Positions 5,202 to 61,709 of a stretch of 64,000 nt of DNA are shown piece by piece. Source of the stretch: Actinomycetota bacterium. GTDB taxonomy: Bacteria; Actinomycetota; Acidimicrobiia; Acidimicrobiales; JAJPHD01. The DNA is taken from NCBI GenBank assembly GCA_021325455.1, contig JAJPHD010000026.1, positions 334,722-398,721 on the forward strand, read 5' to 3'. Position numbers and translations under genes: made by a program. How positions within the stretch are numbered: the stretch's first letter is position 1; each line of letters starts with the position of its first letter. A model generated the notes under the pieces. It was not told the origin of the DNA. It saw only the letters and a list, made by a program, of their open reading frames with translations, and ran no database searches.

Positions 5202-6998
5202 ATGGGTGCAAGGTCGCATAACAGCAAGCTGCTGAGGTGGGTGGACGAGGTGGCCGCCCTCACCACCCCCGACCGGGTCGAGTGGTGCGACGGCTCGGCC
5301 GAGGAGTACGACCGGCTGGCCCAGCTCCTGGTGGACCAGGGGGCCTTCGTGCGCCTCTCGGACGCCAAGCGACCCAACAGCTACTGGGCCCACTCCGACC
5401 CGGCCGACACCGCCCGGGTGGAGGGGCGCACCTTCATCTGCTCCGAGCGGGAGGAGGATGCCGGCCCCACCAACAACTGGCGGGACCCGGCCGAGATGCG
5501 CCGGACCCTCACCGGGCTCTTCCGGGGCTCCATGCGGGGGCGCACCATGTACGTAATTCCCTTCTCCATGGGACCCCTCGGGTCCCCGATCGCCCACATC
5601 GGGGTCCAGTGCACCGACTCTGCCTACGTGGCGGTGAACATGCGGATCATGACCCGCATGGGCCAGGCTGCCCTGGACGTGCTCGGGGACGACGGGGACT
5701 TCGTCCCCTGCCTGCACTCCGTGGGCGCCCCTCTGGAGCCGGGCCAGCAGGACGTGGCCTGGCCCTGCGACCCCGACAACAAGTACATCGTGCACTTCCC
5801 CGAGACGCGCGAGATCTGGTCCTACGGCTCGGGGTACGGGGGCAACGCCCTCCTGGGCAAGAAGTGCCTGGCCCTGCGCATCGCCTCGGTCATGGCTCGC
5901 GATGACGGCTGGCTGGCGGAGCACATGCTGATCGTGAAGCTGACCTCCCCTGAGGGGGAGACGCGTTACGTCACGGGTGCCTTCCCGTCGGCGTGTGGGA
6001 AGACCAACCTGGCCATGCTGGTCCCCACCCTTCCCGGATGGAAGGTGGAGACGGTGGGTGACGACATCTGCTGGATGAAGTTCGGTCCCGACGGCCGGCT
6101 CTACGCCATCAACCCGGAGGCGGGCTTCTTCGGCGTGGCTCCCGGCACCAGCATGAAGACCAACCCCAATGCCATGCTGACCCTGGACGGCAACTGCATC
6201 TTCACCAACACCGCCCTCACCGACGACGGCGACGTGTGGTGGGAGGGGATGACCGAGGAGCCACCCGCCCACCTCACGGACTGGAGGGGCCAGCCCTGGA
6301 CACCGTCCTCGGGGACGCCGGCGTCCCATCTCAATGCCCGCTTCACCGCCCCGGCCAGCCAGGACCCCGCCATCGCTCCAGAGTGGGAGGACCCGGCCGG
6401 GGTCCCCATCTCGGCCATCCTGTTCGGGGGGCGGAGGGCCTCAGTGGTGCCCCTCATCGTGGAGTCCACCAGCTGGCGCCACGGGGTGTTCCTGGGATCG
6501 ATCATGGCCTCGGAGACAACTGCTGCGGCCGCCGGCAAGGTGGGCAACCTGAGGCGTGACCCCTTCGCCATGCTGCCCTTCTGCGGCTACAACATGGGTG
6601 ACTACTTCGGCCACTGGTTGGAGGTGGGCCGGGCGACCACGCCGGACAAGCTGCCCAAGATCTTCTACGTCAACTGGTTCCGCAAGGACAGCGAGGGCCG
6701 GTTCCTCTGGCCCGGCTTCGGCGAGAACAGCCGGGTCCTGGAGTGGGTGTTCCAGCGCTGCGGAGGCAGGGGCGAGGCGGTGGAGACCCCCGTGGGCCTG
6801 GTCCCCGCCCCCGGGGCCATCGACACCAGCGGGCTCGACGTGCCCAAGGAGGACATGGAGGAGCTGCTGCGCGTCGACACCGGCGAGTGGCGGGCCGAGG
6901 TGCCGCTCATAAGGGAGCACTTCGAGCGGTTCGGAGCCCACCTGCCGGCGGAGCTCGCCGAGGAGCTGGAGGCGCTCTCCCAGCGCCTGGACAAGTAG
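5202..6998 (+). CDS. pckG: phosphoenolpyruvate carboxykinase (GTP)
   Basis: 598 aa. Kinase-1a loop [29 protein letters not shown] and FGGRR motifs. N-terminus collinear with mycobacterial PckG as I recall it. Confidence 0.95.
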
Positions 6999-16081: not shown

Positions 16082-16501
16082 TTGGGTCTCGTGGTGCAAG
16101 CCCCCGCCGCCCCCCGCCCGCCGGCTGGCGGACCTCCCACGCGGCCGGCCCCTGACCGCTGGGCCCGCCGGGTGCTGCGGGTGCGTGATGACCGGTTGAC
16201 CGTGGGCCAGGCCCAGGCCGAACGGCTCTTCAGCACCTCCATCGTCCTCTCCGCCAGCCGCTGCCTGGCCACCTACGTGGTCCTGCCCGTCATCAGCCTC
16301 GTGGTCCAGGGGGCGGCCAGCGTGGGGCCCGACGTGGGTGTCCCCCTCGGCCTGTTGGCCCTGGTGTTCGACGTGGTGGGCATCAGGAGGTTCTGGCTGG
16401 CCGACCACCGCTGGCGCTGGCCCGTCACCGCCGTCTACCTGATGGTGATGGCCCTGGTGGTGGCCTTCCTGGTCATCGACGTCTCCGCCCTGACCCGCTG
16501 A
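16082..16501 (+). CDS. hypothetical small membrane protein
   Basis: 139 aa with high GC3 and 3 hydrophobic helices (ATYVVLPVISLVV, VPLGLLALVFDVV, VTAVYLMVMALVVAFLVI). No family recognised and the start is uncertain. Confidence 0.4.
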   Translation: MGLVVQAPAAPRPPAGGPPTRPAPDRWARRVLRVRDDRLTVGQAQAERLFSTSIVLSASRCLATYVVLPVISLVVQGAASVGPDVGVPLGLLALVFDVVGIRRFWLADHRWRWPVTAVYLMVMALVVAFLVIDVSALTR

Positions 16502-16546: not shown

Positions 16547-17908
16547 TCAACGGGACAGGCCCACCCCGTCCCCGTCCGGGCGGCGCCGGCCCTCCCGCAC
16601 CCGTGTCCTGCCCTCAGGGGCCGCCACCAGGTCCCTCCAGGGCGGGGAGGCATGGCTGGGCGTGAGGCGGACCGAGGCCGGGGGGCGCCCCGCCTCCAGG
16701 TAGACGGCCCGGCCCCGGACTCCCTGGCTCAGGGCTGCGACCGGCACCCGGGGCTGGCGCCTGGTGGACCACGTCGTGGTGGAGCTGAGGCCACCCCGCT
16801 GCCACCAGCGGCCCGAGCGGCTGACCGAGCGGACAGGGACGTCCAGGTCACCGCAAAGGGCCGACAGGGCCTCCAGGATCCTGGCCTCCCCCAGCCCGGG
16901 GAGGATCAGCTTGGCCCGGAAGTGGCTGAGGAAGCCGCCGGCAGCGGCCGGGCCCCAGCGGTCCCGGGCCTGGGAGAGGTCCTGGAAGCAGGCCGGCACC
17001 AGCACCCCCTGGCCTCCGCCCTCCGAGACGATGCGGGGGAGGCTGGGGAGGGGGGCGATGTTGGCCACCTCGTCCAGGGCCAGCACCACGGCCGGAGGGA
17101 CGGGGCGGGAACCCGCCTCCCCGGCGGCACGGTAGGCGGCTGAGCACACCTCTTCGAGCAAGGACACCACCAGCGGCCCCACCAGGTCCTGGGACCCCGA
17201 GGGAGCGCATATGTAGACCGTGTCCCGCGAGCGCACGAAGGCCCCGGGCTCGAAGTTGGGCCGGCGGGTGGTGGCCAGGGCGGCATCGGTCTGGTAGGCG
17301 GAGATGGCCTGCGCCGCGGTGGAGAAGATGGCCGACAGCTCACGGTCCTCGCAGTCCGTGACCCCCGCCAGCACGTCCGCGGCCAGCGGCGAGCCCTGCT
17401 CACCGAGGACCGCCTCGGCGGGAGAGACCTGCCTGCGGTTCACCCACCGGCTCACGTCCTCCATGGAGGCCCCGCACACTCCCCCGGCATGGAGAAGCGG
17501 CGCCAGCAGGGCCTCGGCCCGGCCCTTCCAGTGGTCGGCGTCGAGGGTGCCCCGGCCGGAGGAGGAGGTGGCCACCAGCCGGCGCGCCACCAGCCGGGCC
17601 GTCTCCCAGCGGGCCGAGGCCGGGACGGGCGACCACCGCAGGGCCCTCACGCCGGCCGGGACCCCCACCTCTCCGGTGGGGTCGAACAGCCAGCACTCCC
17701 CGGACCGGCTCCGGTGGGCGAGGGTGGCAGCCAGCACATCGGGCTTGGTGGAGGTGGAGACCACCGGCCCTCCCCCGGCCAGGACGTTGGGGATGACGAG
17801 GGACGAGGTCTTGCCCGACCGGGGCGGTCCCAGCACCAGGAGGTGGGCCTCGGGAGGGGCCCACGCCCACCCCGCCGGCGTGGCTCCCAGGTACAGGGAG
17901 GGGGTCAC
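16547..17908 (-). CDS. VirD4/TraG-family type IV coupling-protein-like P-loop ATPase, lacking an N-terminal TM anchor
   Basis: 453 aa. Walker A LVLGPPRSGKTSSLVIPNVL (the VIPN signature of TraG/VirD4), Walker B VVLALDEVANIAPLP, and a TraG-D_C-like C-terminus. GTG start 9 nt after the stop of the upstream CoA-transferase gene. Confidence 0.75.
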   Translation of the reverse strand: MTPSLYLGATPAGWAWAPPEAHLLVLGPPRSGKTSSLVIPNVLAGGGPVVSTSTKPDVLAATLAHRSRSGECWLFDPTGEVGVPAGVRALRWSPVPASARWETARLVARRLVATSSSGRGTLDADHWKGRAEALLAPLLHAGGVCGASMEDVSRWVNRRQVSPAEAVLGEQGSPLAADVLAGVTDCEDRELSAIFSTAAQAISAYQTDAALATTRRPNFEPGAFVRSRDTVYICAPSGSQDLVGPLVVSLLEEVCSAAYRAAGEAGSRPVPPAVVLALDEVANIAPLPSLPRIVSEGGGQGVLVPACFQDLSQARDRWGPAAAGGFLSHFRAKLILPGLGEARILEALSALCGDLDVPVRSVSRSGRWWQRGGLSSTTTWSTRRQPRVPVAALSQGVRGRAVYLEAGRPPASVRLTPSHASPPWRDLVAAPEGRTRVREGRRRPDGDGVGLSR

Positions 17909-17917
17909 CGCCGCCGG

Positions 17918-19063
17918 TCAGGCCAGAGCACCCACCCGGCGCAGCCGGGCCAGGTCGGCGGCGCTGAAGCCCCAGTCGGCGAGAGCCTCGTCCGTGTGCT
18001 GGCCGGCGTGGGCCGGCGGAGCCCCCACCTCGCCGGGTGTCCGGCTGAAGCGGGGAGCGGGCCCCGGCTGCACCACCCCGCCCACCTCCACGAAGGTGCC
18101 CCGGGCCCGGTTGTGAGGGTGGCCCGGCGCCTCTGCCATCGACAGCACGGGGGCGAAGCAGGCGTCCGAGCCCTCCATCAGCTGGCACCACTCGTCCCTC
18201 GTCCGGGAGCGGAACACCTGGGCCAGGCGCTCCTTCATCCGGGGCCAGGCCGCCCGGTCCATCTGGGGGGGGAGGTCCTCCTCCTCCAGCCCGCTCCGGC
18301 GCACCAGCTCGGCGTAGAACCGGGGCTCGATGGCCCCTACGGCGACGTGGCCCCCGTCGGCCGTCTCGTACACCTCGTAGAAGTGGGCTCCGGTGTCGAG
18401 GAGGTTGGTGCCCCGCTCGTCTCTCCACAGGCCCATGGCCCTCAGCCCGTGGATCATGGTGGTGAGCAGGGCGGCCCCATCCACCATGGCGGCATCGACC
18501 ACCTGGCCCTTGCCGGAGCGGGCCGCCTCGAGGAAGGCGCACACCATCCCGAAGGCCAGCAGCATCCCTCCCCCGCCGAAGTCGCCCACCAGGTTGAGGG
18601 GCGGGACCGGGCGCTCCCCCGCCCTGCCGATGGCGCCCAGGACACCGGCCAGGGCGATGTAGTCGATGTCGTGCCCGGCGGCCCCGGCCAGCGGGCCGTC
18701 CTGGCCCCAGCCCGTCATCCGCCCGTAGGCCAGCCGGGGGTTGCGGGCCAGGCAGGGCTCGGGCCCGATCCCCAGCCGCTCCGCCACCCCGGGCCGGAAG
18801 CCTTCGATGAGGCCGTCGGCCCGCTCCACCAGCCGGAGCACGGTCGCCACGCCCTCGGGGTGCTTGAGGTCCACGCCCACCGAGCGACGGCCGCGGGCCA
18901 GGAGGTCGGCGGAGGGGGTATCCGGCCCGCCGGCGGGGACCGAGGAGGCCCGGTCCACCCGGAGCACCTCTGCCCCCATGTCGGCGAGCATCATGGCGGC
19001 AAAGGGCCCGGGGCCGATGCCCGCCACCTCCACCACCCTGAGCCCGGCCAGCGGCCCGCTCAA
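17918..19063 (-). CDS. family III CoA-transferase (alpha-methylacyl-CoA racemase / CaiB-BaiF type)
   Basis: 381 aa. [35 protein letters not shown]-terminus, GWGQDGP, typical of the MCR/Far family. TTG start overlaps the upstream stop (TTGA). Confidence 0.85.
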
Positions 19064-19956
19064 CCCGCCCGCTCCGCCTGGGTCGGCTCGGCCCGCCGGG
19101 CGTTGTCCACGATGGCGTCGATGATCCGGTCCCAGAGCTCGGGGGGGAGGTCATGGCCCATGCCCGGAACCAGCATGAGCCGGGCACCGGGAACGGCCCT
19201 GGCCGTCGCCTCCCCCCCGCTGGGGGTCACCAGGGGGTCGGCTTCCCCGTGTATCACGAGGGTGGGCACCCTGACCCGGGCCAGGGCCTCCGTGCGGTCG
19301 GGCGAGGCCAGGATGGCGGCCAGCTGGCGAACGACGCCCTGGGGGTGGTAGCCGCGCTGCCAGCACCTCTGCGCCCGGGCCCTCAGCCTCTCGGGGTCGG
19401 GAGGGTAGGCAGGGGACCCGATGACCGCCGCCGAGGCCAGGGAGCCCGCCAGGTAGCTCTCCCAGTCCGTGGCCGGGGGGCGCAGGAGCACCGCCATGGC
19501 CTCCGGGCTGGGCTGGCCCACGCCCCGGGCGCCGGTGGTGGACATGACCGAGCACAGGCTGGCGACCTTCTCCGGGTGGGCCACGGCCAGGGCCTGGGCG
19601 ATCATGCCCCCCATGGATGCCCCCACCACATGGGCCCGCTCCACCCCGATGGCATCGAGCAGCCCGGCGGCGTCCTCGGCCATGTCCTCCAGCCGGTAGG
19701 GGGCAGAGGACGGGTCGCCGCTCATGAGAGCGGCGATGTCAGGGGCAGGTCCACCGTCCAGCTTGGTGGACAGCCCCACGTCGCGGTTGTCGAAGCGCAC
19801 CACCTGGAACCCCCGGCTGGCCAGGGCCTGGCACCAGCTGTCCTCCCACCACACCATCTGGGCCGACAGCCCCATGATCAAGAGCATGGCCGGGTCGGTG
19901 GGCCGACCCGTCAGCTCGTATTCCAGTTCTATGCCGTTGACCAGAGCGCGGGGCAT
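19060..19956 (-). CDS. alpha/beta hydrolase
   Basis: Real part of track ORF 19060..20379; ATG at 19956 is in frame. [17 protein letters not shown]...LIMGLS..., nucleophile elbow [11 protein letters not shown]-terminal GMGHDLP. Confidence 0.8.
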
Positions 19957-20779: not shown

Positions 20780-20829
20780 GGGGGAGTCAGGTTAGCGGGG
20801 AGTTAGCCTCTCCCCATGGAGCCCGCCGG

Positions 20830-21315
20830 GTGCCAGGCGTGAAGCGGGTCCCCGAGGTCATCGAGTTCCGCCCACCCGACCTGGGGGAGGTCGTCACCCG
20901 GATGGCCTGGCTGGAGGAGCGGGCCGGTGGCTGGGTCAACTTCCAGCCCGAGGTGAGGGGGGTCCCGCCCCGGCGCCCCAGCGCCCTGGTGTCCCTGTTC
21001 GAGCGCCGTCCCCCGGAGCTCACCCTGGCCACCTGGGCACCCGGCAGGCGCCGGGGGCCGCAGGCCGAGCCCGCCACGGTCGGGATACAGCACGGGCGCC
21101 CGGACACGGTGCGGTCGCTCCTGGTCCGGGCGGGCCTGGCCCTTCCCCCGGGATGGCGCCTGGTGCAGGACCGGCCCCGGGCCGGCCTGGTGGCCAGGCT
21201 CCCCGCCGCTACGCCTCACGAAGAGGTACTGGCCTGGCTGCTGGAGGCCGTGCAGGTGGTGTCGTCCTTCCCCATCACCGGGACCTGGCGGGCCCTCGTC
21301 CACCATCCCCGCTGA
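20830..21315 (+). CDS. hypothetical protein
   Basis: 161 aa with strong GC3 bias consistent with coding. No family recognised. Confidence 0.45.
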   Translation: MPGVKRVPEVIEFRPPDLGEVVTRMAWLEERAGGWVNFQPEVRGVPPRRPSALVSLFERRPPELTLATWAPGRRRGPQAEPATVGIQHGRPDTVRSLLVRAGLALPPGWRLVQDRPRAGLVARLPAATPHEEVLAWLLEAVQVVSSFPITGTWRALVHHPR

Positions 21316-25679: not shown

Positions 25680-25699
25680 CCCCCTAGCTCAGCGTGACG

Positions 25700-25932
25700 C
25701 AGCCCAGCGGACGCCGGGGAGAGGGTGGCCACAGGTCGCCCCCCTGGAGCGGGAGCGGGGCGAGGTTGCACTGGGTCAGGGCGTCTAGCCCTGCAGCGGA
25801 ACAGCAGTTCCGCCATAGAGCCGGGTAAGCCCGGAGGCTCGGTCCCGAGGAGACCGGGGAGATCCCCGGCTACTTGGGGCCGAGTCGCGTGGGGGCCCCG
25901 GAGCCAAAACCACATCGGTGTAACGCGGGCTG
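25700..25932 (+). ncRNA. candidate structured RNA / long structured 5' leader of uvrD2 (family not recognised)
   Basis: Four contiguous hairpins: 25777-93 (6 bp), 25796-813 (7 bp, AGCA loop), 25818-40 (8 bp, UAAG loop) and 25841-81 (9+6 bp, including 2 G-U pairs that exist only on the + strand). A closing stem pairs 25700-09 with 25924-32. Confidence 0.3.
25797..25812. promoter_or_regulatory. weak LexA-box-like palindrome CGGAAC-AGCA-GTTCCG
   Basis: The core GAAC-N4-GTTC of the actinobacterial SOS box is present, but the flanks differ from TCGAAC/GTTCGA. It coincides with hairpin 2 of the structured leader, 135 nt upstream of the uvrD2 ATG. Confidence 0.3.
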
Positions 25933-25946
25933 GCTATGGTCGGGCC

Positions 25947-28112
25947 ATGGACGACCGGCTGCTCGATGGCCTCACCCCGAGCCAGCGCCAGGCCGTCGTG
26001 GTGGAGGCGGCCCCGTTGTGCATCCTGGCCGGCGCCGGCTCGGGCAAGACCCGGGTCCTCACCCACCGCATCGCCTGGAGGATCGCCTCGGGATCGGCCA
26101 GCCCCTCCCATGTCCTGGCCCTCACCTTCACGCGCAAGGCTGCCGGCGAGCTCCGCCGTCGCCTGCTGTCGCTGGGGGCGCGGGACCAGGTGGCGGCAGC
26201 CACCTTTCACGCCGCCGCCCTGGCCCAGCTCCGCCGCCGGTGGGCGGACCAGGGCCGGACTCCCCCGGCCATCCTCCAGCGCAAGTCCGCTCTGCTGGGC
26301 CGGGTCCTACCCCGCCATCACCGGGGAGGCCAGCCGGGCGAGGTCCTGGCCGCTCTGGCCGGCGAGATCGAGTGGGCCAAGGCCCGCCTGGTCGACCCGG
26401 CGGGCTACCCGTCGGCGGCGGTCGCCGGGGGCCGGCGCCCCCCGCTCACCCCCGGGGAGGTGGCAGAGGCCTACCGTGCCTATGAGGAAGAGAAGGCCAG
26501 ACGGGGCCTCATGGACCTGGACGACCTGCTGGTGGCTTGCGCCAGCGCCATCGAGGCCGACCCCGTGTTCGCCGCTGCCCAGCGCTGGCGCTTCCGGCAC
26601 GTGTTCGTGGACGAGTTCCAGGACGTGAACCCCGCCCAGGAGCGCCTGCTCAGGGCCTGGCTCGGCTCCAACCGGGACCTGTGCGTGGTGGGGGACCCCC
26701 ACCAGGCCATATACGGATGGAACGGAGCCGACCCCACCGCCCTGACCCGCATGCCCGAGCGCTTCCCGGGCACGGAGGTGGTGAGGCTGGAGGACAACTG
26801 GCGCTCCTCGCCCCAGATCCTGGCCGTGGCCTCGGCCGTGCTGAGCCATGGCCGCCGGGCTGCCCGGGGCGGGGGCGCCCCTCTCCGGGCCCACCGACCC
26901 GACGGCCCCGTGCCCACCATCACCCCCTACGGCTCCGACCGCCTGGAGGCGGAAGGGATCGCCCGCAGGGCCCGCCAAGCCCACCGGCCGGGGCGTCCCT
27001 GGTCGGACATGGCTGTCCTGGTGCGCACCAACGCCCAGATACCGCTGCTGGAGGAGGCCCTGCAGGCGGCAGGCATACCGCACCGGGCTCCCGGAGGAGG
27101 GCTTCTCTCCCAGGGTGTCGTGCAGGAGGCCCTGGCCCGCCTGGGCCGCTCGCCTCACCGCAGCATGACGGCGGTGGCGGCCCAGCTGAGGGAGGAGGCA
27201 GCGGAGTGGGCCGCCCCGAGCCGGGACCTGCAGGCTCCGGGCCCGGTCGGTGCTGGCGCCGCCGGCGACCCGGGCGACGAGCGGGCCGACCTGCTCCTGG
27301 GCCTGGCCCGCCTGGCCGGCGAGTACCAGTCGCTCGACCCGGAAGCGACGGCGGCGGGGTTCGAGCCCTGGCTGGTCGCCACCTTGGGCCGGGCCTCGGA
27401 GGAGGAGGGGAGCGATGCCGTCCAGGTCCTCACCTTCCACCGGGCCAAGGGCCTCGAGTGGCCGGTCGTCCTGGTGGCGGGGCTGGAGCTCGGGCTGGTG
27501 CCCATCGGCCACGCCACCACCCCGGCGGCCGACGAGGAGGAGCGCCGGTTGCTCTACGTGGCCCTGACCCGGGCCGAGGCCGAGCTGCACTGCTCCTGGG
27601 CCCGCCGGCGCACCTTCGGTGAGCGGACCACCCGGCGCTCCCCCTCCCCCTACCTGGCCACGCTGGAGTCGGTCTGCTCCTCCCTGGCACGGGCGCCGGC
27701 GGGGGCCCAGGTGGCCGACCTGCTGGCCGCCAGCCGAAGGGCCCTGGAGCAGGGGGCCACCAAGGGAGCGGGCCCAGCTGCGGGAGGGCGCTCGGACCTG
27801 GTCCACAGGCGAGGGCGGCGGAGCGGGGGGACCGGGCGGGGCGGTCCCCGCGAGGCACCGGCGCTCACCCTGGCCCGGTCCGCCAACCCCGAGGCGGTGG
27901 AGGCCCTGCGAGCCTGGCGGGCAGCCACCGCTCGGGCCTCCGGGGTGCCTGCCTACGTGATCCTCCACGACGCCACCCTGGCCGGCCTCGCCAGCGCCCT
28001 GCCCTCCACCCCCGGCGACCTGCAGGGGCTCCCCGGGCTCGGCCCCGTCAAGGTCGCCCGCTACGGCCGGGCCCTGCTGGAGGTACTGGCGCCCTACCGG
28101 GCCTCCGCCTGA
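25947..28112 (+). CDS. uvrD2: UvrD2-type superfamily-1 DNA helicase with C-terminal HRDC domain
   Basis: Start re-set to ATG 25947 (MDDRLLDGLTPSQRQAV). Walker A AGAGSGKTRVL, motif II VDEFQDVN, NWRSS. The C-terminal HRDC is LRAWRAATARASGVPAYVILHDATLAGLA...LQGLPGLGPVKVARYG. Confidence 0.88.
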   Translation: MDDRLLDGLTPSQRQAVVVEAAPLCILAGAGSGKTRVLTHRIAWRIASGSASPSHVLALTFTRKAAGELRRRLLSLGARDQVAAATFHAAALAQLRRRWADQGRTPPAILQRKSALLGRVLPRHHRGGQPGEVLAALAGEIEWAKARLVDPAGYPSAAVAGGRRPPLTPGEVAEAYRAYEEEKARRGLMDLDDLLVACASAIEADPVFAAAQRWRFRHVFVDEFQDVNPAQERLLRAWLGSNRDLCVVGDPHQAIYGWNGADPTALTRMPERFPGTEVVRLEDNWRSSPQILAVASAVLSHGRRAARGGGAPLRAHRPDGPVPTITPYGSDRLEAEGIARRARQAHRPGRPWSDMAVLVRTNAQIPLLEEALQAAGIPHRAPGGGLLSQGVVQEALARLGRSPHRSMTAVAAQLREEAAEWAAPSRDLQAPGPVGAGAAGDPGDERADLLLGLARLAGEYQSLDPEATAAGFEPWLVATLGRASEEEGSDAVQVLTFHRAKGLEWPVVLVAGLELGLVPIGHATTPAADEEERRLLYVALTRAEAELHCSWARRRTFGERTTRRSPSPYLATLESVCSSLARAPAGAQVADLLAASRRALEQGATKGAGPAAGGRSDLVHRRGRRSGGTGRGGPREAPALTLARSANPEAVEALRAWRAATARASGVPAYVILHDATLAGLASALPSTPGDLQGLPGLGPVKVARYGRALLEVLAPYRASA

Positions 28113-28509: not shown

Positions 28510-29304
28510 CTACGGGCCCTGGCGCCACCCGTCGGCCACGTCGACCAGCACCGGGGCGTGGTCAGAGGGCTGCTTGCCCTTGCGGGCGAAGCGGTCGATG
28601 AGGGCGAAGGTCACCCGCTCGGCCAGCGGGCGGGTGAGGAGGATGAGATCGATGCGCATGCCCCGGTGCTGGTGGAAGTCGCCGGCCCGGTAGTCCCACC
28701 AGGAGAAGAGCCCTTCCTGGTCGTAGCGGGTACGGAAGGCGTCCACCAGGCCCCAGCTGAGGAGCCCCTTCAGCGCCTGGCGCTCGGGCTCGCTCACGTG
28801 GGTGGCTCCCTGGAAGGAGGAGGGGTCCCAGACGTCGCGGTCGTCGGGGGCAATGTTGAAGTCCCCGCACAGGGCCAGCGGCCCCGCCGGGTCGCAGGCC
28901 TCCTCCAGGTGGTGCTGCAGGCTGTCCAGCCAGGCGAGCTTGGCCTCGTAGTGCTCGCTGCCCACGCTCCGCCCGTTGGGCACGTAGAGGCTGGCCACCC
29001 TCACCCCTCCACAGGTGGCGCTGACCAGGCGGGCCTCGGTGACCTGCTCTGGGAGCTGGCCCGAGAAGCCGGCCCGCACCTCCTCCAGGCCCACCCGGCT
29101 CAGGATGGCCACCCCGTTCCAGCGGCCGAGGCCATGGTGGGCCGCCTCGTACCCCCGGGAGGCGAAGGCCATGGCCGGGAAGTCGCCGTCGGCCATCTTG
29201 GTCTCCTGCAGGCACAGCACGTCGGGCTGGGCGTAGTCCAGCCACTCCTCGACCCTCGGAAGCCGGGCCTTCAGGGAATTGACGTTCCAGGTGGCGATGC
29301 GCAC
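28510..29304 (-). CDS. xthA: exodeoxyribonuclease III
   Basis: 264 aa. MRIATWNVNSLKARL...PDVLCLQETK...GDFNIAP...SDHAPV = ExoIII/APE1 family signatures. Confidence 0.92.
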   Translation of the reverse strand: MRIATWNVNSLKARLPRVEEWLDYAQPDVLCLQETKMADGDFPAMAFASRGYEAAHHGLGRWNGVAILSRVGLEEVRAGFSGQLPEQVTEARLVSATCGGVRVASLYVPNGRSVGSEHYEAKLAWLDSLQHHLEEACDPAGPLALCGDFNIAPDDRDVWDPSSFQGATHVSEPERQALKGLLSWGLVDAFRTRYDQEGLFSWWDYRAGDFHQHRGMRIDLILLTRPLAERVTFALIDRFARKGKQPSDHAPVLVDVADGWRQGP

Positions 29305-29310
29305 GGTGCC

Positions 29311-29776: not shown

Positions 29777-31477
29777 TCAGGAACCCCCTGCGCCCTCGGG
29801 GCCCGGCGTCCGGCGCCGGCGGGTGGGCCGCGGAGGCTCGGCCGGCTCCCCCTCCGGGGAGGGGGGAGCCTTCTTGGTGCGGGAGCGCTTGGCGGCGGGG
29901 GCCTTCTCGGCGGGGGAGGCCTTGTCAGCGGGGGAGGCCTTGTCAGCGGCGGTGGCCTTCCCGCCTGCCTTCTGCCCGGCCGGGGCCTTCCCTGCCCTTT
30001 GCCCCGCCGGGGCCTTCCCCGCCTTCTGCCCGGACGGGGCCGTCCCACCGGCCTTCGGCCCGGTGGCCCCGGCCTCCTGGCCCGCCTTCCTGGCTGCCCT
30101 GGCTCCCCCGGCCTTCGGGACGGCCTTCCTGCCTGTCCCCGCCGTCCCGCCGGTGGCACCCTCCGGGCCCTCCTTCTCAGCGGCGGCCGCCCTGGTCCGC
30201 CGGGTGGCCCTCTTGCCGGCCGGTGGCGGGCCCTCCCCCGGCGGCGCCGCCTCGCCCCCGCCTTCCCCGCCTCCCGGCTCGGGCTCTGCTGGCGCCTTCC
30301 TGCGGGGAGCCCGCTTGGCCGGGGCCTTCTCGGGGGCGGGCCGGCTCGGCTCCTCCTCCCGCCCCGCCTCCTTGGCAGCGCCCTTCGCCGGCTCCGTCCC
30401 CGCCGCCTTGGCTCTGGCCCCGCTGGCCCGCTTGGGCTTCTGCTGCTTGGCGCTGCCGGCGATCTCGGCCTCCACCGTCTCCTCGCTCGGCGTCCCGGCG
30501 ACCTGGGCGAACTCGGGAAGGGCCAGCTCGATGCCCCGCCGCTGGGGGTCCAGGGCCTGGAGCACGAACCTGCGGTGCTCGCCCTTGCTCAGCACCGCCC
30601 TGGCCTTGGTCGGCGGCGGGTCCCCCAGGCCGGACAGGGGCACGTACCCCCTGGCCCCGTCCACGGTGATGAACGCCCCGTGGGAGGTGAAGCTCTCCAC
30701 CTCGCCCTCCACCTGGCTGCCGAGGGGGTGCTCGGCGATGAAGGTGATGAACGCAAGGGGCTCGTTCACGGCCTGGGGTGGTGGTCCGGCTCCTCTCCGG
30801 CGGCGCCGGCGACGGGCCGTGGTCGAGTCGGGAGCCTCCACCTCCTTGGTGGCCGCCGCAATGGCCTTGCGCACCTTCTCGTCCTTGGCCGGGGCGGCCT
30901 TGATCCCCACGGCCTCACCACCCTTAGGGCTGATGGGGCGGGGCGGGGGAGTGGTAGGGACCGGCATGGGCTGGGAGGCCTCTTTGGAGCCGATGCGCAC
31001 CCGGTGCATCCGGGCCTCTTTCATGGCCTGCTTGCTCCTCTGGCCCCGCACGGGCGTGCGGGGGGTGAAGATCCAGCCCACCCCGGGGACCGGCTTGCCC
31101 CCGATCAGCCTTCCCTTGTCGAACAGCCACTCGTGCTCCCCGTGGAACTCCTGGAAGGAGTCGTTGGAAAGGACCACGGCGCCGGTCTTCTCGGCAATCA
31201 GCAGCAGGAAGGCGTCACCCCGCCCGATGGCACCGGCCGGCGGGGAGACCACCTCCCCGTGAGCCTCGGCCTCCTGGAAGGAGGCCCGCTCCGACTCGTC
31301 GATGCGGTGGCCGAAGGTGGCATCGACGACCACCGTGATCTCGGCGTCGGGGAACTCGGCCTGAAAGGCCCGGACGGCCTCGTCCAGCTGGGCCAGGCTG
31401 GGGAGCGACCGTCCCTCGGTGGCAATGTTGGAACCGTCGACGACGACGTGGCGGCGTGGCATCTCCCCCGTAGTCAA
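29777..31477 (-). CDS. NYN (Zc3h12a-like) ribonuclease domain + S1 RNA-binding domain protein with long K/A/P-rich histone-H1-like tail
   Basis: 566 aa. N-terminus is HVVVDGSNIATEG...VVVDATFGH...GDAFLLLIAEKTGAVVLSNDSFQEF (NYN/PIN-like). The middle is GSQVEGEVESFTSHGAFITVDGARGYVPLS (S1). The C-terminal about 250 aa is Lys/Ala/Pro/Gly repeats. Confidence 0.75.
   Translation of the reverse strand: MTTGEMPRRHVVVDGSNIATEGRSLPSLAQLDEAVRAFQAEFPDAEITVVVDATFGHRIDESERASFQEAEAHGEVVSPPAGAIGRGDAFLLLIAEKTGAVVLSNDSFQEFHGEHEWLFDKGRLIGGKPVPGVGWIFTPRTPVRGQRSKQAMKEARMHRVRIGSKEASQPMPVPTTPPPRPISPKGGEAVGIKAAPAKDEKVRKAIAAATKEVEAPDSTTARRRRRRRGAGPPPQAVNEPLAFITFIAEHPLGSQVEGEVESFTSHGAFITVDGARGYVPLSGLGDPPPTKARAVLSKGEHRRFVLQALDPQRRGIELALPEFAQVAGTPSEETVEAEIAGSAKQQKPKRASGARAKAAGTEPAKGAAKEAGREEEPSRPAPEKAPAKRAPRRKAPAEPEPGGGEGGGEAAPPGEGPPPAGKRATRRTRAAAAEKEGPEGATGGTAGTGRKAVPKAGGARAARKAGQEAGATGPKAGGTAPSGQKAGKAPAGQRAGKAPAGQKAGGKATAADKASPADKASPAEKAPAAKRSRTKKAPPSPEGEPAEPPRPTRRRRTPGPEGAGGS
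29893..30045. repeat. in-frame tandem repeats inside the tail of the NYN-S1 gene
   Basis: A perfect 2 x 18-bp tandem CGGGGGAGGCCTTGTCAG (29911-28 and 29929-46) plus a degenerate third copy (29893-910), encoding ADKASP units. Adjacent about 27-bp units encode KAGKAPAGQ x3. Confidence 0.7.
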
Positions 31478-31567
31478 CCATCCCCACGCCCCCGCGCCGG
31501 TGACCCCGGGCCGGCAGGGGGGGCCGGGGCCCTGGAGCGGGCACCGAGGACCCTGCCCGGCCTGCGG

Positions 31568-34500
31568 TCAGTCGACGGGCACCGCCAGGGGCGCGAAGGC
31601 CCGCTGCAGCAGATCCTCGGTCTCCAGCTGGTGGACGGCAGAGCTGCCCGTCGCCGGGCTGCCGGCCTCCGCCCTGCTCACATGGCCCAGGCGGAAGTCG
31701 TTGCGCAGGATCCGGTGGAGGCGGCCGTGCACGAAGCCCCAGGGCCCCTGGTTCTCGGGCTCCTCCTGGACCCACACCACCTCCTCGGCCCGCTCGTAGC
31801 GGGCCAGGAGGCCGGCGATATGGTCCTCGGGCCAGGGATAGAGCTGCTCCACCCTGGCCACCGCCGTCACCGGGCCCTTCCCCTCCTTCAGGAGCTGGTC
31901 CCGGCGGGCCATGACCTCGTAGGAGACCTTCCCGCTGCACAGCACTACCCGACCGACGGACAGGGGGTCGATGGGTCCACCGTCGGAGGTGGCGGGATCG
32001 TCCAGCACCTCCCGGAACGACCCCTCCACCAGGTCCTCCACCCTGGACCTCGAGTGCCGGGAGCGAAGGAGGGACTTGGGCGTGAGCACCACGAGGGGGA
32101 CGAGGCGGTCGCGCCGGTGCACCTGGGCCCGGAGCAGGTGGAAGTACTGGGCCGCGGTGCTGGCGTTCACCACCCGGATGTTGCCCCCGGCGGCAAGGGT
32201 CAAGAACCGCTCCACCCGCGCCGAGGAGTGGTCAGGGCCCTGGCCCTCGTAGCTGTGGGGCAGCAGCAGGACCAGCCCGGACCGCTGGTCCCACTTGTCC
32301 TCGGCCGCGACTATGAACTCGTCGATGATGGTCTGGGCCCCGTTGGCGAAGTCTCCGAACTGGGCCTCCCAGGCCACCAGGGCGTCGGGCCGCACGACCG
32401 AGTACCCGTACTCGAAGCCCAGGGCGGCGAACTCCGAGAGGAGCGAGTCGTATATGAGGAACCTCCCCTGGCGCTCCTCGGGTGCCGCCGCCGGCCTGTC
32501 ACCCTCGTCGGGGGCCAGGGGACCGGCTGCGGGCGCCGCCCCCGTTCCCCGCGTGGCCCCTCCCCCGCTGGCGCCGTTGAGCCATCCGCCCTCGGGGGCG
32601 AGATGGGCCAGCGGCACCCACTCCTCCCCGGTCCGGTAATCCACATAGGCGGCGTGGCGCTGGCTGAACGTCCCCCGCCGGCTGTCCTGGCCCGCCAGGC
32701 GGACGTCCACCCCCTCCAGCAGCAGCGACCCGAAGGCCAGGGCCTCGGCCAGGGCCCAGTCCACCTCGCCGCCTGCATACACCTTGGCCCGGCCCGCCAT
32801 CTGCTTCTCCAGCTTGGGGTGCAAGGTGAACCCTTCGGGGACGTTGTGGACGGCGCGGGAGATGCGGTCCAGCACGCTGCGCTCCACGCCCGTGGGGGGG
32901 GCGGACACGACCTCCACCGGCGGCGGAGGAGGCACGGTGTCCGGCTTGGGCGGTGCCGAGGACCGGGTCTGCTCAAGGGCCGTCTGGAGGCGGGCGGAGA
33001 AGTCCTCGAGGGCCTGCTCGGCCTCCTCCAGGGTGAGGTCGCCCCGGTGGACCAGGCGCTCGGTGTACAGCTTGCGCACGGAGCGATGGCGGTCGATGCG
33101 CTCGTACATCTGGGGCTGGGTGTAGCTGGGCTCATCCCCCTCGTTGTGCCCGTACCTGCGGTAGCAGACCATGTGGATCACCACGTCCCGGTGGAACCTC
33201 TGGCGGAACCCGTAGGCCAGCTTGGCCACCCGCACGCAGGCCTCGGGGTCGTCCCCGTTCACGTGGAAGATGGGCGCCTGGACCATCTTGGCCACGTCGC
33301 TGGCGTAGACCGACGTGCGGCCCTCCTCAGGGGTGGTGGTGAAGCCCAGCTGGTTGTCGATGACGAGGTGGACGGTCCCCCCTGTGCGGTACCCCCGCAG
33401 CCCCGACAGGTTGAGGGTCTCGGCCACGACCCCCTGGCCGGCGAAGGCGGCATCCCCGTGGATGAGAACGGGGAGGACGGGGAACTCGGTGCCCCGGTCC
33501 AGGAGGTCCTGCTTGGCCCGGGCCATGCCCTCCACTACCGGGTCGACGGCCTCCAGGTGGGAGGGGTTGGAGGCCAGCGTCACGGGGATGTCCGAGCCGC
33601 TGCGGCCCACGAACTTGCCGCTCGCCCCCTTGTGGTACTTGACATCGCCCGATCCCTGCACCGTGTCGGGGTCGATGTGGCCCTCGAACTCGTTGAAGAT
33701 CTCGCCGTAGGACTTGCCCACGATGTTGGCCAGGACGTTCAGCCGGCCCCGGTGCGCCATTCCCAGCACGGCCTCTGCCAGCCCGTCGGAGGCGGCCAGG
33801 TCGAGGATGGTGTCCAGGATGGGGATGGCCGACTCCCCGCCCTCAAGGCCGAAGCGCTTCTGGCCTATGTACTTGGTCTGGAGGAACCTCTCGAAGGCCT
33901 CGGCCGCGTTGAGCCGGCCCAGGATGTGGCGCTGCTCGTCGGGAGGGAGGGTGGTGTCCACGCCCTCCACGTGCTCCTGGATCCAGCGCTTCTCGGCTGG
34001 CTCCTGGATGTGCATGTACTCCACGCCGACGGTCCGGCAGTAGGCGTCCCTCAGGATGCCCAGGATCTCTGAGAGGGGCAGCTCGTCGTGGCCGGCCAAC
34101 CCGTCGGTGAGGAAGCTGCGCCCCAGGTCCCAGAGCGTGAGGCCGTAGGTGGCCGGGTCCAGCTCGGGGTGCATGCGGGGAGGGAGGGCCGCCAGCGGGT
34201 CGAGGTCGGCGATGAGGTGGCCCCTCACCCGGTACATGTTGATGAGGGTCTGGACGTGCACCTGCTTGAGGGCCCGGGCCCGCTCGCCGTCGACGGCAGG
34301 GTTGGTGTCCGGCAGCCACCGCACCGGCTCGTAGGGCACCCCCATGGCCCCGAAGATCTCGTGGTAGAAGCCGTCGGCTCCCAGCAGCAGCTCGTGGACC
34401 CGGGCCAGGAACAGCCCGGACTCGGCCCCCTGGATGACCCGGTGGTCGTAGGTGGAGGTGAGGGTGGCGACCTTCCCCACTCCCATCTCGGCCAGCCGGG

Positions 34501-35455
34501 CCGGGTCGGCGGCCTGGTACTCCGCCGGGTAGGCGATGGCCCCCACCCCGACTATCACCCCCTGGCCGGGCATAAGACGGGGGATGGAGTGGACGGTCCC
34601 GATGGTGCCCGGGTTGGTGAGGGTGAGGGTGGCCCCACTGAAGTCGTCAGGGGCGATCTTGTTGGTGTGGACCTTGCGTACCAGCTCCTCGTAGGCCAGC
34701 ACGAAGCTGCGGAAGTCCAAGGTGTCGGCGCTCTTCACCACCGGTACCAGCAGGGTTCTCGACCCGTCGGGCTTCTCGACGTCCACCGCCAGGCCCAGGC
34801 CCACGTGCTCGGGCTGGGCCACCCCGGGCGTCCCCTTGCCGTCGACGTCCTCCACGAAATGCCGGTTCATGGCCGGCACCACCCGCACCGCCTGGACCAC
34901 TGCGTAGCCGATGATGTGGGTGAAGCTGACCTTGCCCCCGTGCGTACGGGCCAGGTGGTTGTTGAGGATGGTGCGGTTGACCTCCAGCAGCTTGGTGGGC
35001 ACCGGCCTGACGCTGGTGGCGGTGGGGATGGCCAGGCTGGCCTGCATGTTGGCCGCGATGCGGGCCGGCGCCCCCCGCAGCGGCTTCGCATCCCCGTCGA
35101 GATGCTGCTCCTTGCCCGCAGCCGTCCCCGGTCCGCTCGCCTCCTTCCCCGGCCGGCCCGGCGCTCCCTCCGGCTCCTTGCCGTCACGGATGGCCGGCGA
35201 GCCCAGTGCCGCCCCGTCCTCCGAGGGGCTGGGCGGGGGCTGAGGGGCGGAAGGCTGGGGAGAGGGCGGGTCACCGGTGGGCACCGGGCGTCCCTCGACG
35301 TCGATGACAGGGCGGGAGCCGGGGCCCGCCACTCCCCTGCCCGGCTGGTAGTCGGCGAAGAACTCCTGCCAGCTCTCGCTCACTGAGCCAGGGTCCTGGC
35401 GGTACTGCTCGTACATGTCATCCACGAGCCAGGCGTTGGGGCCGAATGCCCCCAT
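31568..35455 (-). CDS. kgd: multifunctional 2-oxoglutarate decarboxylase/dehydrogenase E1o with fused E2-like acyltransferase domain (Kgd/OdhA type)
   Basis: Start re-set to ATG 35455 (MGAFGPNAWLVDDMYEQYRQDPGSVSESWQEFF). E2-like catalytic domain (TSTYDHRVIQGAESG), then the E1o TPP domain (HGDAAFAGQGVV, CYRRYGHNEGDEP). Confidence 0.93.
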   Translation of the reverse strand: MGAFGPNAWLVDDMYEQYRQDPGSVSESWQEFFADYQPGRGVAGPGSRPVIDVEGRPVPTGDPPSPQPSAPQPPPSPSEDGAALGSPAIRDGKEPEGAPGRPGKEASGPGTAAGKEQHLDGDAKPLRGAPARIAANMQASLAIPTATSVRPVPTKLLEVNRTILNNHLARTHGGKVSFTHIIGYAVVQAVRVVPAMNRHFVEDVDGKGTPGVAQPEHVGLGLAVDVEKPDGSRTLLVPVVKSADTLDFRSFVLAYEELVRKVHTNKIAPDDFSGATLTLTNPGTIGTVHSIPRLMPGQGVIVGVGAIAYPAEYQAADPARLAEMGVGKVATLTSTYDHRVIQGAESGLFLARVHELLLGADGFYHEIFGAMGVPYEPVRWLPDTNPAVDGERARALKQVHVQTLINMYRVRGHLIADLDPLAALPPRMHPELDPATYGLTLWDLGRSFLTDGLAGHDELPLSEILGILRDAYCRTVGVEYMHIQEPAEKRWIQEHVEGVDTTLPPDEQRHILGRLNAAEAFERFLQTKYIGQKRFGLEGGESAIPILDTILDLAASDGLAEAVLGMAHRGRLNVLANIVGKSYGEIFNEFEGHIDPDTVQGSGDVKYHKGASGKFVGRSGSDIPVTLASNPSHLEAVDPVVEGMARAKQDLLDRGTEFPVLPVLIHGDAAFAGQGVVAETLNLSGLRGYRTGGTVHLVIDNQLGFTTTPEEGRTSVYASDVAKMVQAPIFHVNGDDPEACVRVAKLAYGFRQRFHRDVVIHMVCYRRYGHNEGDEPSYTQPQMYERIDRHRSVRKLYTERLVHRGDLTLEEAEQALEDFSARLQTALEQTRSSAPPKPDTVPPPPPVEVVSAPPTGVERSVLDRISRAVHNVPEGFTLHPKLEKQMAGRAKVYAGGEVDWALAEALAFGSLLLEGVDVRLAGQDSRRGTFSQRHAAYVDYRTGEEWVPLAHLAPEGGWLNGASGGGATRGTGAAPAAGPLAPDEGDRPAAAPEERQGRFLIYDSLLSEFAALGFEYGYSVVRPDALVAWEAQFGDFANGAQTIIDEFIVAAEDKWDQRSGLVLLLPHSYEGQGPDHSSARVERFLTLAAGGNIRVVNASTAAQYFHLLRAQVHRRDRLVPLVVLTPKSLLRSRHSRSRVEDLVEGSFREVLDDPATSDGGPIDPLSVGRVVLCSGKVSYEVMARRDQLLKEGKGPVTAVARVEQLYPWPEDHIAGLLARYERAEEVVWVQEEPENQGPWGFVHGRLHRILRNDFRLGHVSRAEAGSPATGSSAVHQLETEDLLQRAFAPLAVPVD

Positions 35456-35525
35456 GGCGGACGGTTCCGGGGATCGGCGCGGCATCACCTCCAATCCTAC
35501 GGTCTCGCCGTCTACGGTCGGAGGG

Positions 35526-39330: not shown

Positions 39331-39555
39331 GTGGCCAGCCGCCGCCTGACCCGGCCCTACCTGGTCCCCGTGGGCCTGTTGGCCCTGGTGATGGCCGGGG
39401 CCGGTGTGGCCATGTTCTCGGAGTTCGGCCTCAACGCCTGGGCCTCGGCGAGCCAGCTCGGGGACTGGGTCCAGCACGGGGTGATCTTCTGGGGCGGGAT
39501 GGCGGTGGGAGTGGGCGTGGCCGGCCTCTGGCAGGCCGGCCGGCGCAGGCGCTAG
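39331..39555 (+). CDS. hypothetical small 2-TM membrane protein
   Basis: 74 aa with two hydrophobic helices and high GC3. TAACAT (TANNNT) lies 7 nt upstream of the GTG, which would fit a leaderless transcript. Confidence 0.4.
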   Translation: MASRRLTRPYLVPVGLLALVMAGAGVAMFSEFGLNAWASASQLGDWVQHGVIFWGGMAVGVGVAGLWQAGRRRR

Positions 39556-39568
39556 AGGCCGCCCCGCC

Positions 39569-41181: not shown

Positions 41182-41973
41182 ATGACCACCGCCGCCGCCC
41201 GCCTCCGGGCCACCGAGCGCGCCCCCGGTGAGGGCGGCCGCCTACCCGTCGTGGCCCTGGTGCACGGGTCCATGAGCCGCAGCGCGGTCATGGCGCCCGT
41301 GGCCAGCCGGCTCCCCGACCTCCATGTGATGCTCTACGACCGCCGGGGCTACCACCGGTCACGGGAGGCAGGGGTGGCGGCCGGCCTGGGGCAGCACGTG
41401 GACGATCTGCTGCGTCTCCTGGAGGGGCGGCCGGCCGTGGCCGTGGGGCACAGCTACGGAGGTCTCGTGGCCCTGGCCGCCGCTGCCGGCGCACCAGAGG
41501 TCGTCCGCTCCGCCCTGGCCTACGAGCCTCCGCTCCCCTGGCTGGCCGGATGGCCGGAGGACAGTGCCGGCGGGCTGGCCCTCCGGGCCGCCGAGGAGGC
41601 AGGGGATCCCGGCGCCGGTGCCGAGGCCTTCATGCGCCAGGTGCTCGGCGACGAGGGCTTCGAGCGCCTGCCGGCCGGGGTCAGGGCCGAGAGGCGGCTG
41701 GAGGGGCCGGCCCTGGTGGCAGAGCTGGGGGAGCTCCGCTCTCTGGGCGCCCCCTTCACCCCCGAGAGCATCGAGGTTCCCGTGATCCTGGCCTGCGGGA
41801 CCGAGACCGCCCCCTATCGCCGCCCCGCCCTCGCCAGCCTGGCCCGGTCGATCCCGGGCGCCCGGCTGGAGCTGGTGGAAGGGGCCGGCCACGACGCTCC
41901 CATCACCCACCCGGGGCCCCTCGCCGACCTGGTCCGCCGGGCCGTGGCCCTGGCCGGAGGTGGCCCCCGATGA
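41182..41973 (+). CDS. alpha/beta hydrolase
   Basis: Real part of track ORF 39859..41973; ATG 41182 is in frame. VVALVHGSMS..., nucleophile elbow GHSYGGLVA, C-terminal GAGHDAP. Confidence 0.75.
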   Translation: MTTAAARLRATERAPGEGGRLPVVALVHGSMSRSAVMAPVASRLPDLHVMLYDRRGYHRSREAGVAAGLGQHVDDLLRLLEGRPAVAVGHSYGGLVALAAAAGAPEVVRSALAYEPPLPWLAGWPEDSAGGLALRAAEEAGDPGAGAEAFMRQVLGDEGFERLPAGVRAERRLEGPALVAELGELRSLGAPFTPESIEVPVILACGTETAPYRRPALASLARSIPGARLELVEGAGHDAPITHPGPLADLVRRAVALAGGGPR

Positions 41974-47358: not shown

Positions 47359-47405
47359 CTGGGTGCGCTACTTTCGTCGGGCGGTGGCCGCCGCCCATCC
47401 TTCCC

Positions 47406-47464
47406 GGGGTAGCCCCTGGCCAGAGGAGGTGGCCCGAAGTGGAGGCCAGGGGAACCGCTACCCC
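47406..47464. repeat. long inverted repeat / hairpin in the divergent intergenic region between the two transporter paralogs
   Basis: GGGGTAGCCCCTGGCC (47406-21) pairs with GGCCAGGGG-AACCG-CTACCCC (47444-64): 9+7 bp with a 5-nt bulge. The 22-nt loop contains AGGAGG. Confidence 0.5.
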
Positions 47465-47469
47465 AATCG

Positions 47470-56228: not shown

Positions 56229-56239
56229 GAGGCCCTGGC

Positions 56240-60145: not shown

Positions 60146-60193
60146 GGGAGACCCGGGCCACCGGGCGGAGCAAAGCTGGAGCGAGCAGGAGAG

Positions 60194-61692: not shown

Positions 61693-61709
61693 CCACGGGC
61701 GGGGCCGGG

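Follow-up and report, generated by a model that had tools for sequence, protein, structure and literature searches.

A gene in the 64-kb stretch of contig JAJPHD010000026.1 analysed here (the window) encodes a soluble ATPase related to the type IV coupling proteins (T4CPs) of the VirD4/TraG/TrwB family. The gene lies on the minus strand at 16547..17908, and its 453-amino-acid product is an intact, anchor-less member of the T4CP family that possesses both the nucleotide-binding and the all-alpha domain and is under purifying selection. It belongs to a large clade of ATPases in the Acidimicrobiia that is chromosomal, vertically inherited and not carried on conjugative elements. The window gene is a typical member of this uncharacterized family, in many lineages of which a relaxase gene stands beside the ATPase gene; the window shows the ATPase half only. 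The ATPase is tentatively read, with confidence a little short of even, as a domesticated cytoplasmic relaxosome-coupling ATPase that would act on DNA.

The open reading frame (ORF) begins with a GTG codon and is clearly coding, because the GC content is 0.93 at third codon positions (GC3) and 0.61 at second positions (GC2) in a window of 74% GC. The translation matches PF02534 (6e-23), PF12696 (8e-18) and PF10412 (2e-5; residues 88-363), all above the curated cut-offs. Among the named T4CP equivalogs of NCBIfam (TraG-Ti, VirD4, IncP TraG and the CD1115 family) no cut-off is reached; the highest score, 50.3 bits, compares with a cut-off of 250, and the remainder lie at 13-33 bits against 366-728. 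The Walker A motif, or P-loop, reads GPPRSGKT (residues 27-34; 17807..17830, minus strand) and the Walker B motif LALDEVAN (residues 276-283; 17060..17083, minus strand), both taken from the translation. In a 22-sequence family alignment (A1), P28, P29, R30, G32 and K33 of the first motif are invariant and G27 and T34 are at least 90% conserved, and L278, D279, E280, A282 and N283 of the second are invariant. An initial interpretation made from the letters of the window (the sequence-only reading) had assigned the protein to the T4CPs on such signatures, had placed Walker A near residue 27 and had described the N-terminal transmembrane (TM) anchor as absent, and each of these statements holds. 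No TM helix is found in the protein, the highest mean hydropathy over 19 residues (Kyte-Doolittle) being 1.32. An anchor hidden upstream is impossible, since the stop-to-stop frame of the ATPase opens at 17917, immediately past the stop codon of a CoA-transferase gene whose product matches its Pfam model over the full length.

The AlphaFold2 monomer model of the protein has a mean predicted local distance difference test score (pLDDT) of 85.9 and is confident for residues 1-429. Helices at residues 101-212 sit between strands of the nucleotide-binding domain, and this helical insertion (about residues 101-212; 17273..17608, minus strand) corresponds in the model to the all-alpha domain of coupling proteins. 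Residues 430-453 (16550..16621, minus strand) form a predicted disordered, Arg/Gly-rich C-terminal tail with pLDDT below 50 that ends in GVGLSR. A Foldseek comparison, which the sequence-only reading had proposed together with the search for the three Pfam families, returns as best matches Cagbeta (8dol; TM-score 0.72, E 4e-17) and TrwBdeltaN70 (1e9s; TM-score 0.67-0.71), and also DotL. The alignments cover whole chains, and those with TrwB and Cagbeta span 410-490 columns.

Relative to an 84%-identical ortholog on a metagenome contig (locus L082), the ratio of nonsynonymous to synonymous substitution rates (dN/dS) of the ATPase gene is 0.19, and neighboring genes range from 0.12 to 0.27. These values bear on the proposal that the gene has no function, is left over from an ancient integrated conjugative or mobilizable element and happens to be read through from upstream metabolic genes. 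The loss of the membrane anchor, a view that includes no relaxase or type IV secretion system (T4SS) genes, and the terminal (3′) position of the gene in a string of unrelated genes would all be expected of such a remnant, yet the proposal is contradicted by selection and conservation. Along with the dN/dS value, the catalytic motifs are invariant, GC3 is host-like, the model is confident over residues 1-429, and a length of 450-480 amino acids is held across thousands of relatives with 45-100% identity. A remnant is thus a very improbable explanation. Homologs occur outside conjugative elements as well, and the window copy is free of decay; the opposite on both counts was one of the outcomes that the sequence-only reading had named as fatal to its interpretation.

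Database searches with the ATPase (E<=1e-5) return at least 3835 relatives, and the best 120 are almost all 420-520 amino acids long with the same three Pfam domains; the named ones among them come from Acidimicrobiales or Actinomycetota metagenome-assembled genomes. At least 569 relatives were confirmed in a scan of one genome per species, the best 80 being nearly all from Acidimicrobiales, and a HMMER search of 1.84 billion cluster representatives gave 5724 matches (1060 below E 1e-30). The contigs that carry the relatives reach 4.2 Mb in the species scan and 5.3 Mb elsewhere, and the flanking genes are housekeeping genes. A single weak relative was found among 2.9 million viral contigs. The window gene is therefore one member of a vertically inherited family of thousands, mostly from Acidimicrobiales and with clade-specific gene contexts, and not the isolated oddity that it had first appeared to be.

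Members of the anchor-less clade are defined by a length of 450-480 amino acids, a Walker A motif that lies in the first 80 residues, the lack of a TM segment, an identity of about 45% or more to other members, and an Arg/Gly-rich tail that often ends in G-L-x-R. The window protein has these features, and its identity to the remaining members of alignment A1 (21 sequences) is 50-84%. Hydrophobic segments before Walker A are absent from all close family members, and relatives at 40-47% identity have 100-190 additional N-terminal residues with 1-4 hydrophobic segments. In a neighbor-joining tree, which carries no support values and is indicative only, the anchor-less proteins form one large clade (with three anchor-bearing exceptions) that is sister to a group of anchor-bearing actinobacterial coupling proteins, and the window protein falls inside the TM-less clade in trees of this kind. 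Pairwise distances between the ATPases track those between the TrwC relaxase-domain proteins encoded beside many of them (rho 0.86), as well as those of GH38 (0.84) and adenylate cyclase (0.78), and this correlation indicates that the ATPase, TrwC and neighboring genes are vertically co-inherited.

The main rival to a domesticated role is that the protein is an ordinary coupling protein without a transmembrane domain (TMD), of the type of TraJ of pIP501, that serves a conjugative or mobilization system elsewhere in the genome. In its extreme form, the chromosome itself would be mobilized through the T4SS of a resident plasmid or integrative and conjugative element (ICE). The closest anchor-bearing relatives (36-47% identity) are on actinobacterial plasmids, one of which (Iamia) also has VirB4-like and VirB6-like genes and a MobF relaxase, and the view of the genome covers 64 kb. 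TMD-less T4CPs that support transfer are moreover a recognized subfamily (PMC7434980), and a missing TM domain is not in itself without precedent. Against this rival, no homologs of the T4SS genes of the Iamia plasmid are found within 10 kb of the ATPase gene in 83 related loci or anywhere in the 64-kb window, and the ATPase gene keeps a fixed place in the chromosome, where its divergence parallels that of core genes. The window is also free of integrase genes (among 43 ORFs compared with Pfam, with no specific search for flanking direct repeats), of tRNA genes and of any compositional shift, its GC content being flat at 0.69-0.77. A search with tblastn finds no TrwC homolog in it. The sequence-only reading, which had reported no relaxase, VirB4, integrase or GC shift nearby, is borne out across the whole 64 kb. 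An ordinary coupling protein acting for a distant transfer system is, on this evidence, an unlikely but serious contender.

The reading of the ATPase as a domesticated relaxosome component draws on gene neighborhoods in other clades of the family, for which genes were called by codon-position GC in 82 loci and then clustered. A TrwC relaxase-domain gene is adjacent to the ATPase gene in 46 of these 82 loci; it lies downstream within about 1 kb (usually 7-350 bp) in 45 and upstream in one (L020), and is nearly always convergent. The partner TrwC proteins are about 430-500 amino acids long, match PF08751 at 1e-60 and have no helicase part. Their profile matches TrwC/TraI relaxase domains at 1e-54, and the Tyr pair (YY) and His triad are invariant. 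AlphaFold modelling of such TrwC-only proteins from the database gives, besides the relaxase domain, a small domain of helices and a disordered tail of 40 residues. One or two HTH-WYL-WCX genes, whose products match solved PafBC structures at 1e-23, lie upstream of TrwC and in the same direction, and TrwC is probably co-transcribed with these PafBC-like genes. On the other side of the ATPase gene stands a divergent hupB gene (HU; PF00216 at 2e-24), and the flanks of the partnered loci include gpsA-like, cofC-like and PIG-L-like genes, assigned by sequence without a Pfam check. In actinobacteria, ddlA-gpsA-cofC-hupB is a conserved core block (Mycobacterium tuberculosis Rv2981c-Rv2986c); the window ATPase gene is about 4 kb from ddl.

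A reciprocal test on independent metagenome contigs covered 39 short TrwC genes whose downstream sequence was long enough; 26 of the 39 have a convergent ATPase gene, and 33 have a WYL gene on the same contig. At long relaxases the ATPase gene was present in 1 of 12. T4CP and relaxase genes are classically paired in mobile elements (PMC12857230), which to that extent agrees with an ordinary coupling protein, whereas the partner relaxase here is without the helicase domains of long MOBF relaxases. In L020 (285-4237; contig labelled Chloroflexota), an 869-amino-acid TrwC with helicase-like C-terminal sequence lies directly upstream of, and co-directional with, a soluble-family ATPase gene, a more mobile-element-like arrangement that is possibly an evolutionary intermediate. 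A second group of short TrwC proteins, 39-46% identical to the others (L119, L122, L128, L130-L133, L135, L137-L139), has WYL genes mostly upstream (none in L122) and no ATPase gene in 3-6 kb downstream; these loci might correspond to lineages like that of the window, with the ATPase gene elsewhere. In 31 of 80 loci (L008-L080; for example L045, 9600-9760), an AT-rich conserved block containing CAGGTCAAGCA occurs about 250-330 bp upstream of the ATPase match. It was considered as a separate regulatory element or RNA and rejected, as Rfam gives no match and the divergent hupB gene has its promoter and 5′ end there. The hupB product in these loci combines the HU domain with a basic, Lys/Ala-rich C-terminal repeat region.

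The presence of WYL genes also bears on the proposal that the soluble ATPase, with or without the relaxase-only protein, is a host decoy or interference factor that titrates foreign relaxosomes or nicks origins of transfer (oriT), thereby lowering plasmid establishment or transfer. A soluble, chromosomal protein with an intact substrate-binding all-alpha domain would suit such a task, WYL regulators often control defence islands, and plasmid-encoded factors that target coupling proteins are reportedly known. The WYL pair is however specifically PafBC-like, and a fixed core locus with steady vertical divergence is unlike the patchy distribution of island-borne defence genes. A pure decoy would need no intact ATPase residues, yet these residues are intact. 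A PADLOC search gave one marginal match for the ATPase (mad8, E 0.004, 14.7 bits) and no match for TrwC-only, and a decoy function is improbable. The sequence-only reading had left open an exapted DNA or protein translocase and a defence- or repair-associated ATPase. The DNA translocase or repair option is favored by the TrwC, PafBC-like, HU and imuA'-imuB-dnaE2-like neighbors of the family, and the defence option, with its marginal PADLOC match, has fallen back.

A further link between the two families is the Arg/Gly-rich disordered tail, often ending in G-L-x-R, that is common to the otherwise unrelated ATPases and TrwC-only proteins (loci L008-L081 and L088-L158). RRRPDGDGVGLSR forms the C-terminus of the window protein. 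The strict motif G-[LIVM]-x-[RHW] occurs at the C-terminus of 28 of 122 close ATPase family members (relaxed form 47/122; 44% end in Arg), of 11 of 43 TrwC partners in the loci (relaxed 32/43) and of 34 of 120 TrwC-only database proteins (relaxed 99/120; 91% end in Arg), and in none of 1185 other ORFs of the same loci (relaxed 40/1185; 17% end in Arg), a comparison that is qualitative, given that phylogenetic relatedness inflates any p-value for the motif. In a separate set of anchor-bearing relatives, the G-L-x-R motif was found in 0 of 26. An inverted repeat across the convergent stop codons was considered as the cause of the common tails and rejected, as no consistent repeat was found. The tail is a candidate docking or recognition peptide. 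Arg-rich C-terminal tails also resemble T4SS substrate signals, and in this respect they count for the rival in which the ATPase is an ordinary coupling protein.

Another clade of the family has a different setting. In six loci the same-strand genes after the ATPase gene are two unassigned genes and a paralog of the DNA polymerase III alpha subunit (Pol III alpha), a layout that resembles the imuA'-imuB-dnaE2 mutasome cassette, with a LexA box between the ATPase stop codon and the putative imuA' gene. Membership of the ATPase in the SOS regulon by way of this box was considered and rejected, as the boxes follow the ATPase stop codon and precede the putative imuA' gene. The window has related sequences of its own. 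One GAAC-N4-GTTC match, GAACTGGTGTTC (60127-60138), stands directly in front of a Y-family (IMS-domain, ImuB-like) gene on the plus strand (60143-61453), and a second, GAACACATGTTC (63379-63390), precedes the PHP domain of a dnaE2-like gene that is cut off by the end of the window (63999). The region 60127-63999 looks like a split SOS mutagenesis cassette with a short-chain dehydrogenase/reductase (SDR) gene between its parts. It lies 42-46 kb from the ATPase gene; in the six related genomes the cassette directly follows the ortholog.

In the proposed mechanism of a domesticated relaxosome-coupling ATPase, the protein would most likely assemble, as TrwB does, into a ring that is driven by ATP and binds either DNA or a complex of relaxase and DNA, and the ring would act within the cytoplasm and not as the gate of a T4SS. 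Its partner in most of the family would be the chromosomal, helicase-less nicking enzyme of TrwC type, encoded in the same direction as the PafBC-like DNA-damage regulators. The common Arg-rich tails may dock the ATPase and TrwC on each other or on a common receptor, and the module would process single-stranded DNA (ssDNA) for repair, recombination or chromosomal DNA export. In the window lineage, a rearrangement has made the ATPase gene the last in a string of metabolic genes close to ddl, and transcription of that string probably continues into it; the relaxase gene, if the genome still has one, lies outside the 64 kb. A doubtful elaboration is a minimal relaxosome, composed of a helicase-less TrwC nickase and the soluble ATPase, linked by G-L-x-R tails and under PafBC control, that might serve as a chromosomal machine for DNA damage or ssDNA or in DNA exchange independent of a T4SS. 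The window gene would then be the ATPase half in a lineage in which the genes have separated.

Several observations weigh against a domesticated role of this kind. The ATPase gene has neither a TrwC gene nor a WYL gene nor hupB beside it, whether in the window or in the other loci of its clade (L082, L083, L084, L002 and L003), and with no partner adjacent in its own clade, the partnership is extrapolated to the window gene from other clades and from the retained tail. Where both genes are present, the ATPase and TrwC genes do not form one operon, because they are convergent. Word-limited searches return at least 3835 ATPase relatives at E<=1e-5 and far fewer TrwC-only proteins, 624 at E<=1e-10, and therefore many ATPases may work without TrwC. 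With the LexA box 3′ of the ATPase stop codon, the ATPase is outside that SOS unit, and the mycobacterial RecA-NDp (PafBC) motif has one strict and six loose matches in 1.56 Mb of loci, none near an ATPase gene. Gene order that is conserved among related genomes can persist without a functional link, and a T4SS may be present elsewhere in the family genomes.

The clade of the window in the ATPase tree consists of L082, L084, L083, L002 and L003, and its gene context differs from that of the partnered clades. Upstream of the window ATPase gene and on the same strand is a family III CoA-transferase gene (17918..19063; PF02515 at 7.6e-80, full model), with 9 nt between the two genes in the junction TGA ccggcggcg GTG. 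This gene is preceded by an alpha/beta hydrolase gene (19060..19956, minus strand; PF00561 at 1e-24), whose stop codon overlaps the CoA-transferase start in the sequence TTGA. Both the gap and the overlap, as first described, are read in the sequence. The same-strand genes 5′ of the ATPase encode, in order, an alpha/beta hydrolase, a Mur-ligase-like protein, a D-Ala-D-Ala ligase, a bPH_2/SHOCT protein, a 167-amino-acid ORF without a Pfam match, a methyltransferase, the second alpha/beta hydrolase and the CoA-transferase. A promoter and terminator scan of 15.9-21.5 kb gave no match, although such a scan says little at this GC content.

The neighborhood of the L082 ortholog is identical to that of the window. 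The CoA-transferase gene is also upstream of the ATPase gene in L082, L083, L084 and L002, and was not detected in L003; the order persists in orthologs whose identity is as low as about 55-61%, three of which have gaps of 7-184 nt. The window ATPase gene and the CoA-transferase gene upstream of it probably share a transcript. The suggested co-transcription with metabolic genes thus gains from the conserved order, but the metabolic link is not family-wide: gene context follows the ATPase phylogeny, and so the CoA-transferase link is synteny of the window's clade and not a family trait. The description of the ATPase gene as an orphan holds for the 64-kb window.

The genes 3′ of the ATPase gene converge on it and encode a 139-amino-acid membrane protein, an AsnC-type ligand-binding protein and an ORF that matches a major facilitator superfamily (MFS) transporter gene found in L082, the syntenic locus. 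The first of these (16082..16501, plus strand), called from the GC3 frame plot and without a Pfam match, lies 45 nt past the ATPase stop codon, has hydrophobic, probably membrane-spanning stretches with a hydropathy peak of 2.6 near residue 114, and shows a dN/dS of 0.27 relative to L082. It was considered as a partner like TraI of pIP501 and is probably none, as a homolog is present in the closest relative, L082, and in none of the other related loci. A conserved small membrane partner, which an ordinary TMD-less coupling protein might be expected to have, is accordingly missing. In L083 (61%-identical ortholog), an RHH/PemK toxin-antitoxin pair and a Uma2-family gene (5982-6853) lie directly 3′ of the ATPase gene, and the 3′ flank is therefore variable in the window's clade.

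The rest of the 64 kb consists mainly of core metabolism and DNA-repair genes as judged by Pfam. Of the 43 window ORFs, several are without a Pfam match, and the others fall among housekeeping, transport, regulatory or DNA-repair functions. The repair genes include a UvrD/PcrA-type helicase with an HRDC domain (25698-28112, plus strand), an exonuclease III-family gene (28510-29310, minus strand) and an ATP-dependent DNA ligase gene (55128-56402, minus strand). A 596-amino-acid protein (29777-31567, minus strand) contains both a Zc3h12a-like NYN ribonuclease domain and an S1 RNA-binding domain, and its gene adjoins a fused 2-oxoglutarate dehydrogenase E1/E2 (Kgd-type) gene of 1348 amino acids (31568-35614). 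Coding-like GC3 without a Pfam match at the thresholds used is seen at 20803-21306 (minus strand), 39485-41170 (plus), 41359-42000 (minus), 46471-47367 (minus) and 47413-48630 (plus).

If the favored reading is correct, a whole bacterial class has long kept a coupling ATPase, together with a relaxase in many lineages, as ordinary chromosomal genes. These kept conjugation genes adjoin HU, PafBC-like regulators and an error-prone polymerase cassette, and the common tail is a possible docking motif that is directly testable. There is also a practical consequence for surveys of the mobilome. Those that count PF02534, PF12696 or PF08751 (for example, by the method in PMC11104534) could score core genes of Acidimicrobiia as mobilizable, and such miscounting in the Acidimicrobiia that are abundant in soil and water would inflate estimates of mobile DNA.

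With regard to known systems, the window ATPase shares with TrwB of R388, VirD4 and Cagbeta the same Pfam families, the fold (TM-scores 0.63-0.72) and the Walker A and B residues; a further likeness is that a MOBF/TrwC relaxase gene is often paired with the ATPase gene across the anchor-less family. Unlike these proteins it has no N-terminal TM domain, is only 12-20% identical to them in structural alignments, has no T4SS genes nearby, is chromosomal and vertically inherited, and falls far below every NCBIfam T4CP equivalog cut-off. The partner TrwC-only proteins similarly have the relaxase domain of MOBF TrwC/TraI with its Tyr pair and His triad, and differ in their length of 430-500 amino acids, in having no helicase domains and in their position downstream of PafBC-like genes.

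The nearest plasmid relatives are the coupling proteins of small mycobacterial plasmids (41-44% identity, 609 amino acids) and of Iamia sp. plasmid NZ_CP050950 (36.6%, 590 amino acids); anchor-bearing relatives whose replicon is unassigned reach 47% identity. A C-terminal TPW..PW region is common to the window protein and the anchor-bearing actinobacterial coupling proteins, whereas the plasmid proteins, at 590-610 amino acids, have N-terminal extensions that in the Iamia protein contain two hydrophobic stretches. The Iamia coupling-protein gene adjoins VirB6-like, SCO6880-family and VirB4-like genes and the gene for a 1124-amino-acid MobF relaxase. The closest parallel for the missing anchor is TraJ of pIP501, a TMD-less T4CP that has likewise kept the ATPase core (PMC7434980). 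The TraJ gene belongs to the transfer operon of a plasmid, and the presumed partner of TraJ is a small membrane protein, whereas the window ATPase gene is in no transfer operon and has no conserved small membrane partner, the 139-amino-acid protein being kept in L082 only. Loss of the anchor in T4CPs is thus already known. No publication was found that describes this anchor-less clade, or the combination of its class-wide chromosomal presence, its pairing with a relaxase-only protein and PafBC-like genes, and the common tail, and no paper was found that joins PafBC with a relaxase; the statement of the sequence-only reading that a soluble T4CP-like NTPase has no described role stands in this sense.

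In function, the closest analog is CedD of Sulfolobus, a VirD4-like ATPase that is chromosomally encoded and serves a UV-induced system for DNA import and exchange (PMC11823120). CedD is tied to the DNA-damage response and not to a plasmid, as is proposed for the ATPase family described here. Unlike that family, CedD is archaeal, is membrane-bound and works with the CedA/CedB pore, and no such components are seen here; the likeness is one of analogy and not of direct sequence comparison. Should the proposed role prove correct, the family would represent a clear exaptation of conjugation machinery for a host DNA transaction and a bacterial counterpart of the archaeal Ced system.

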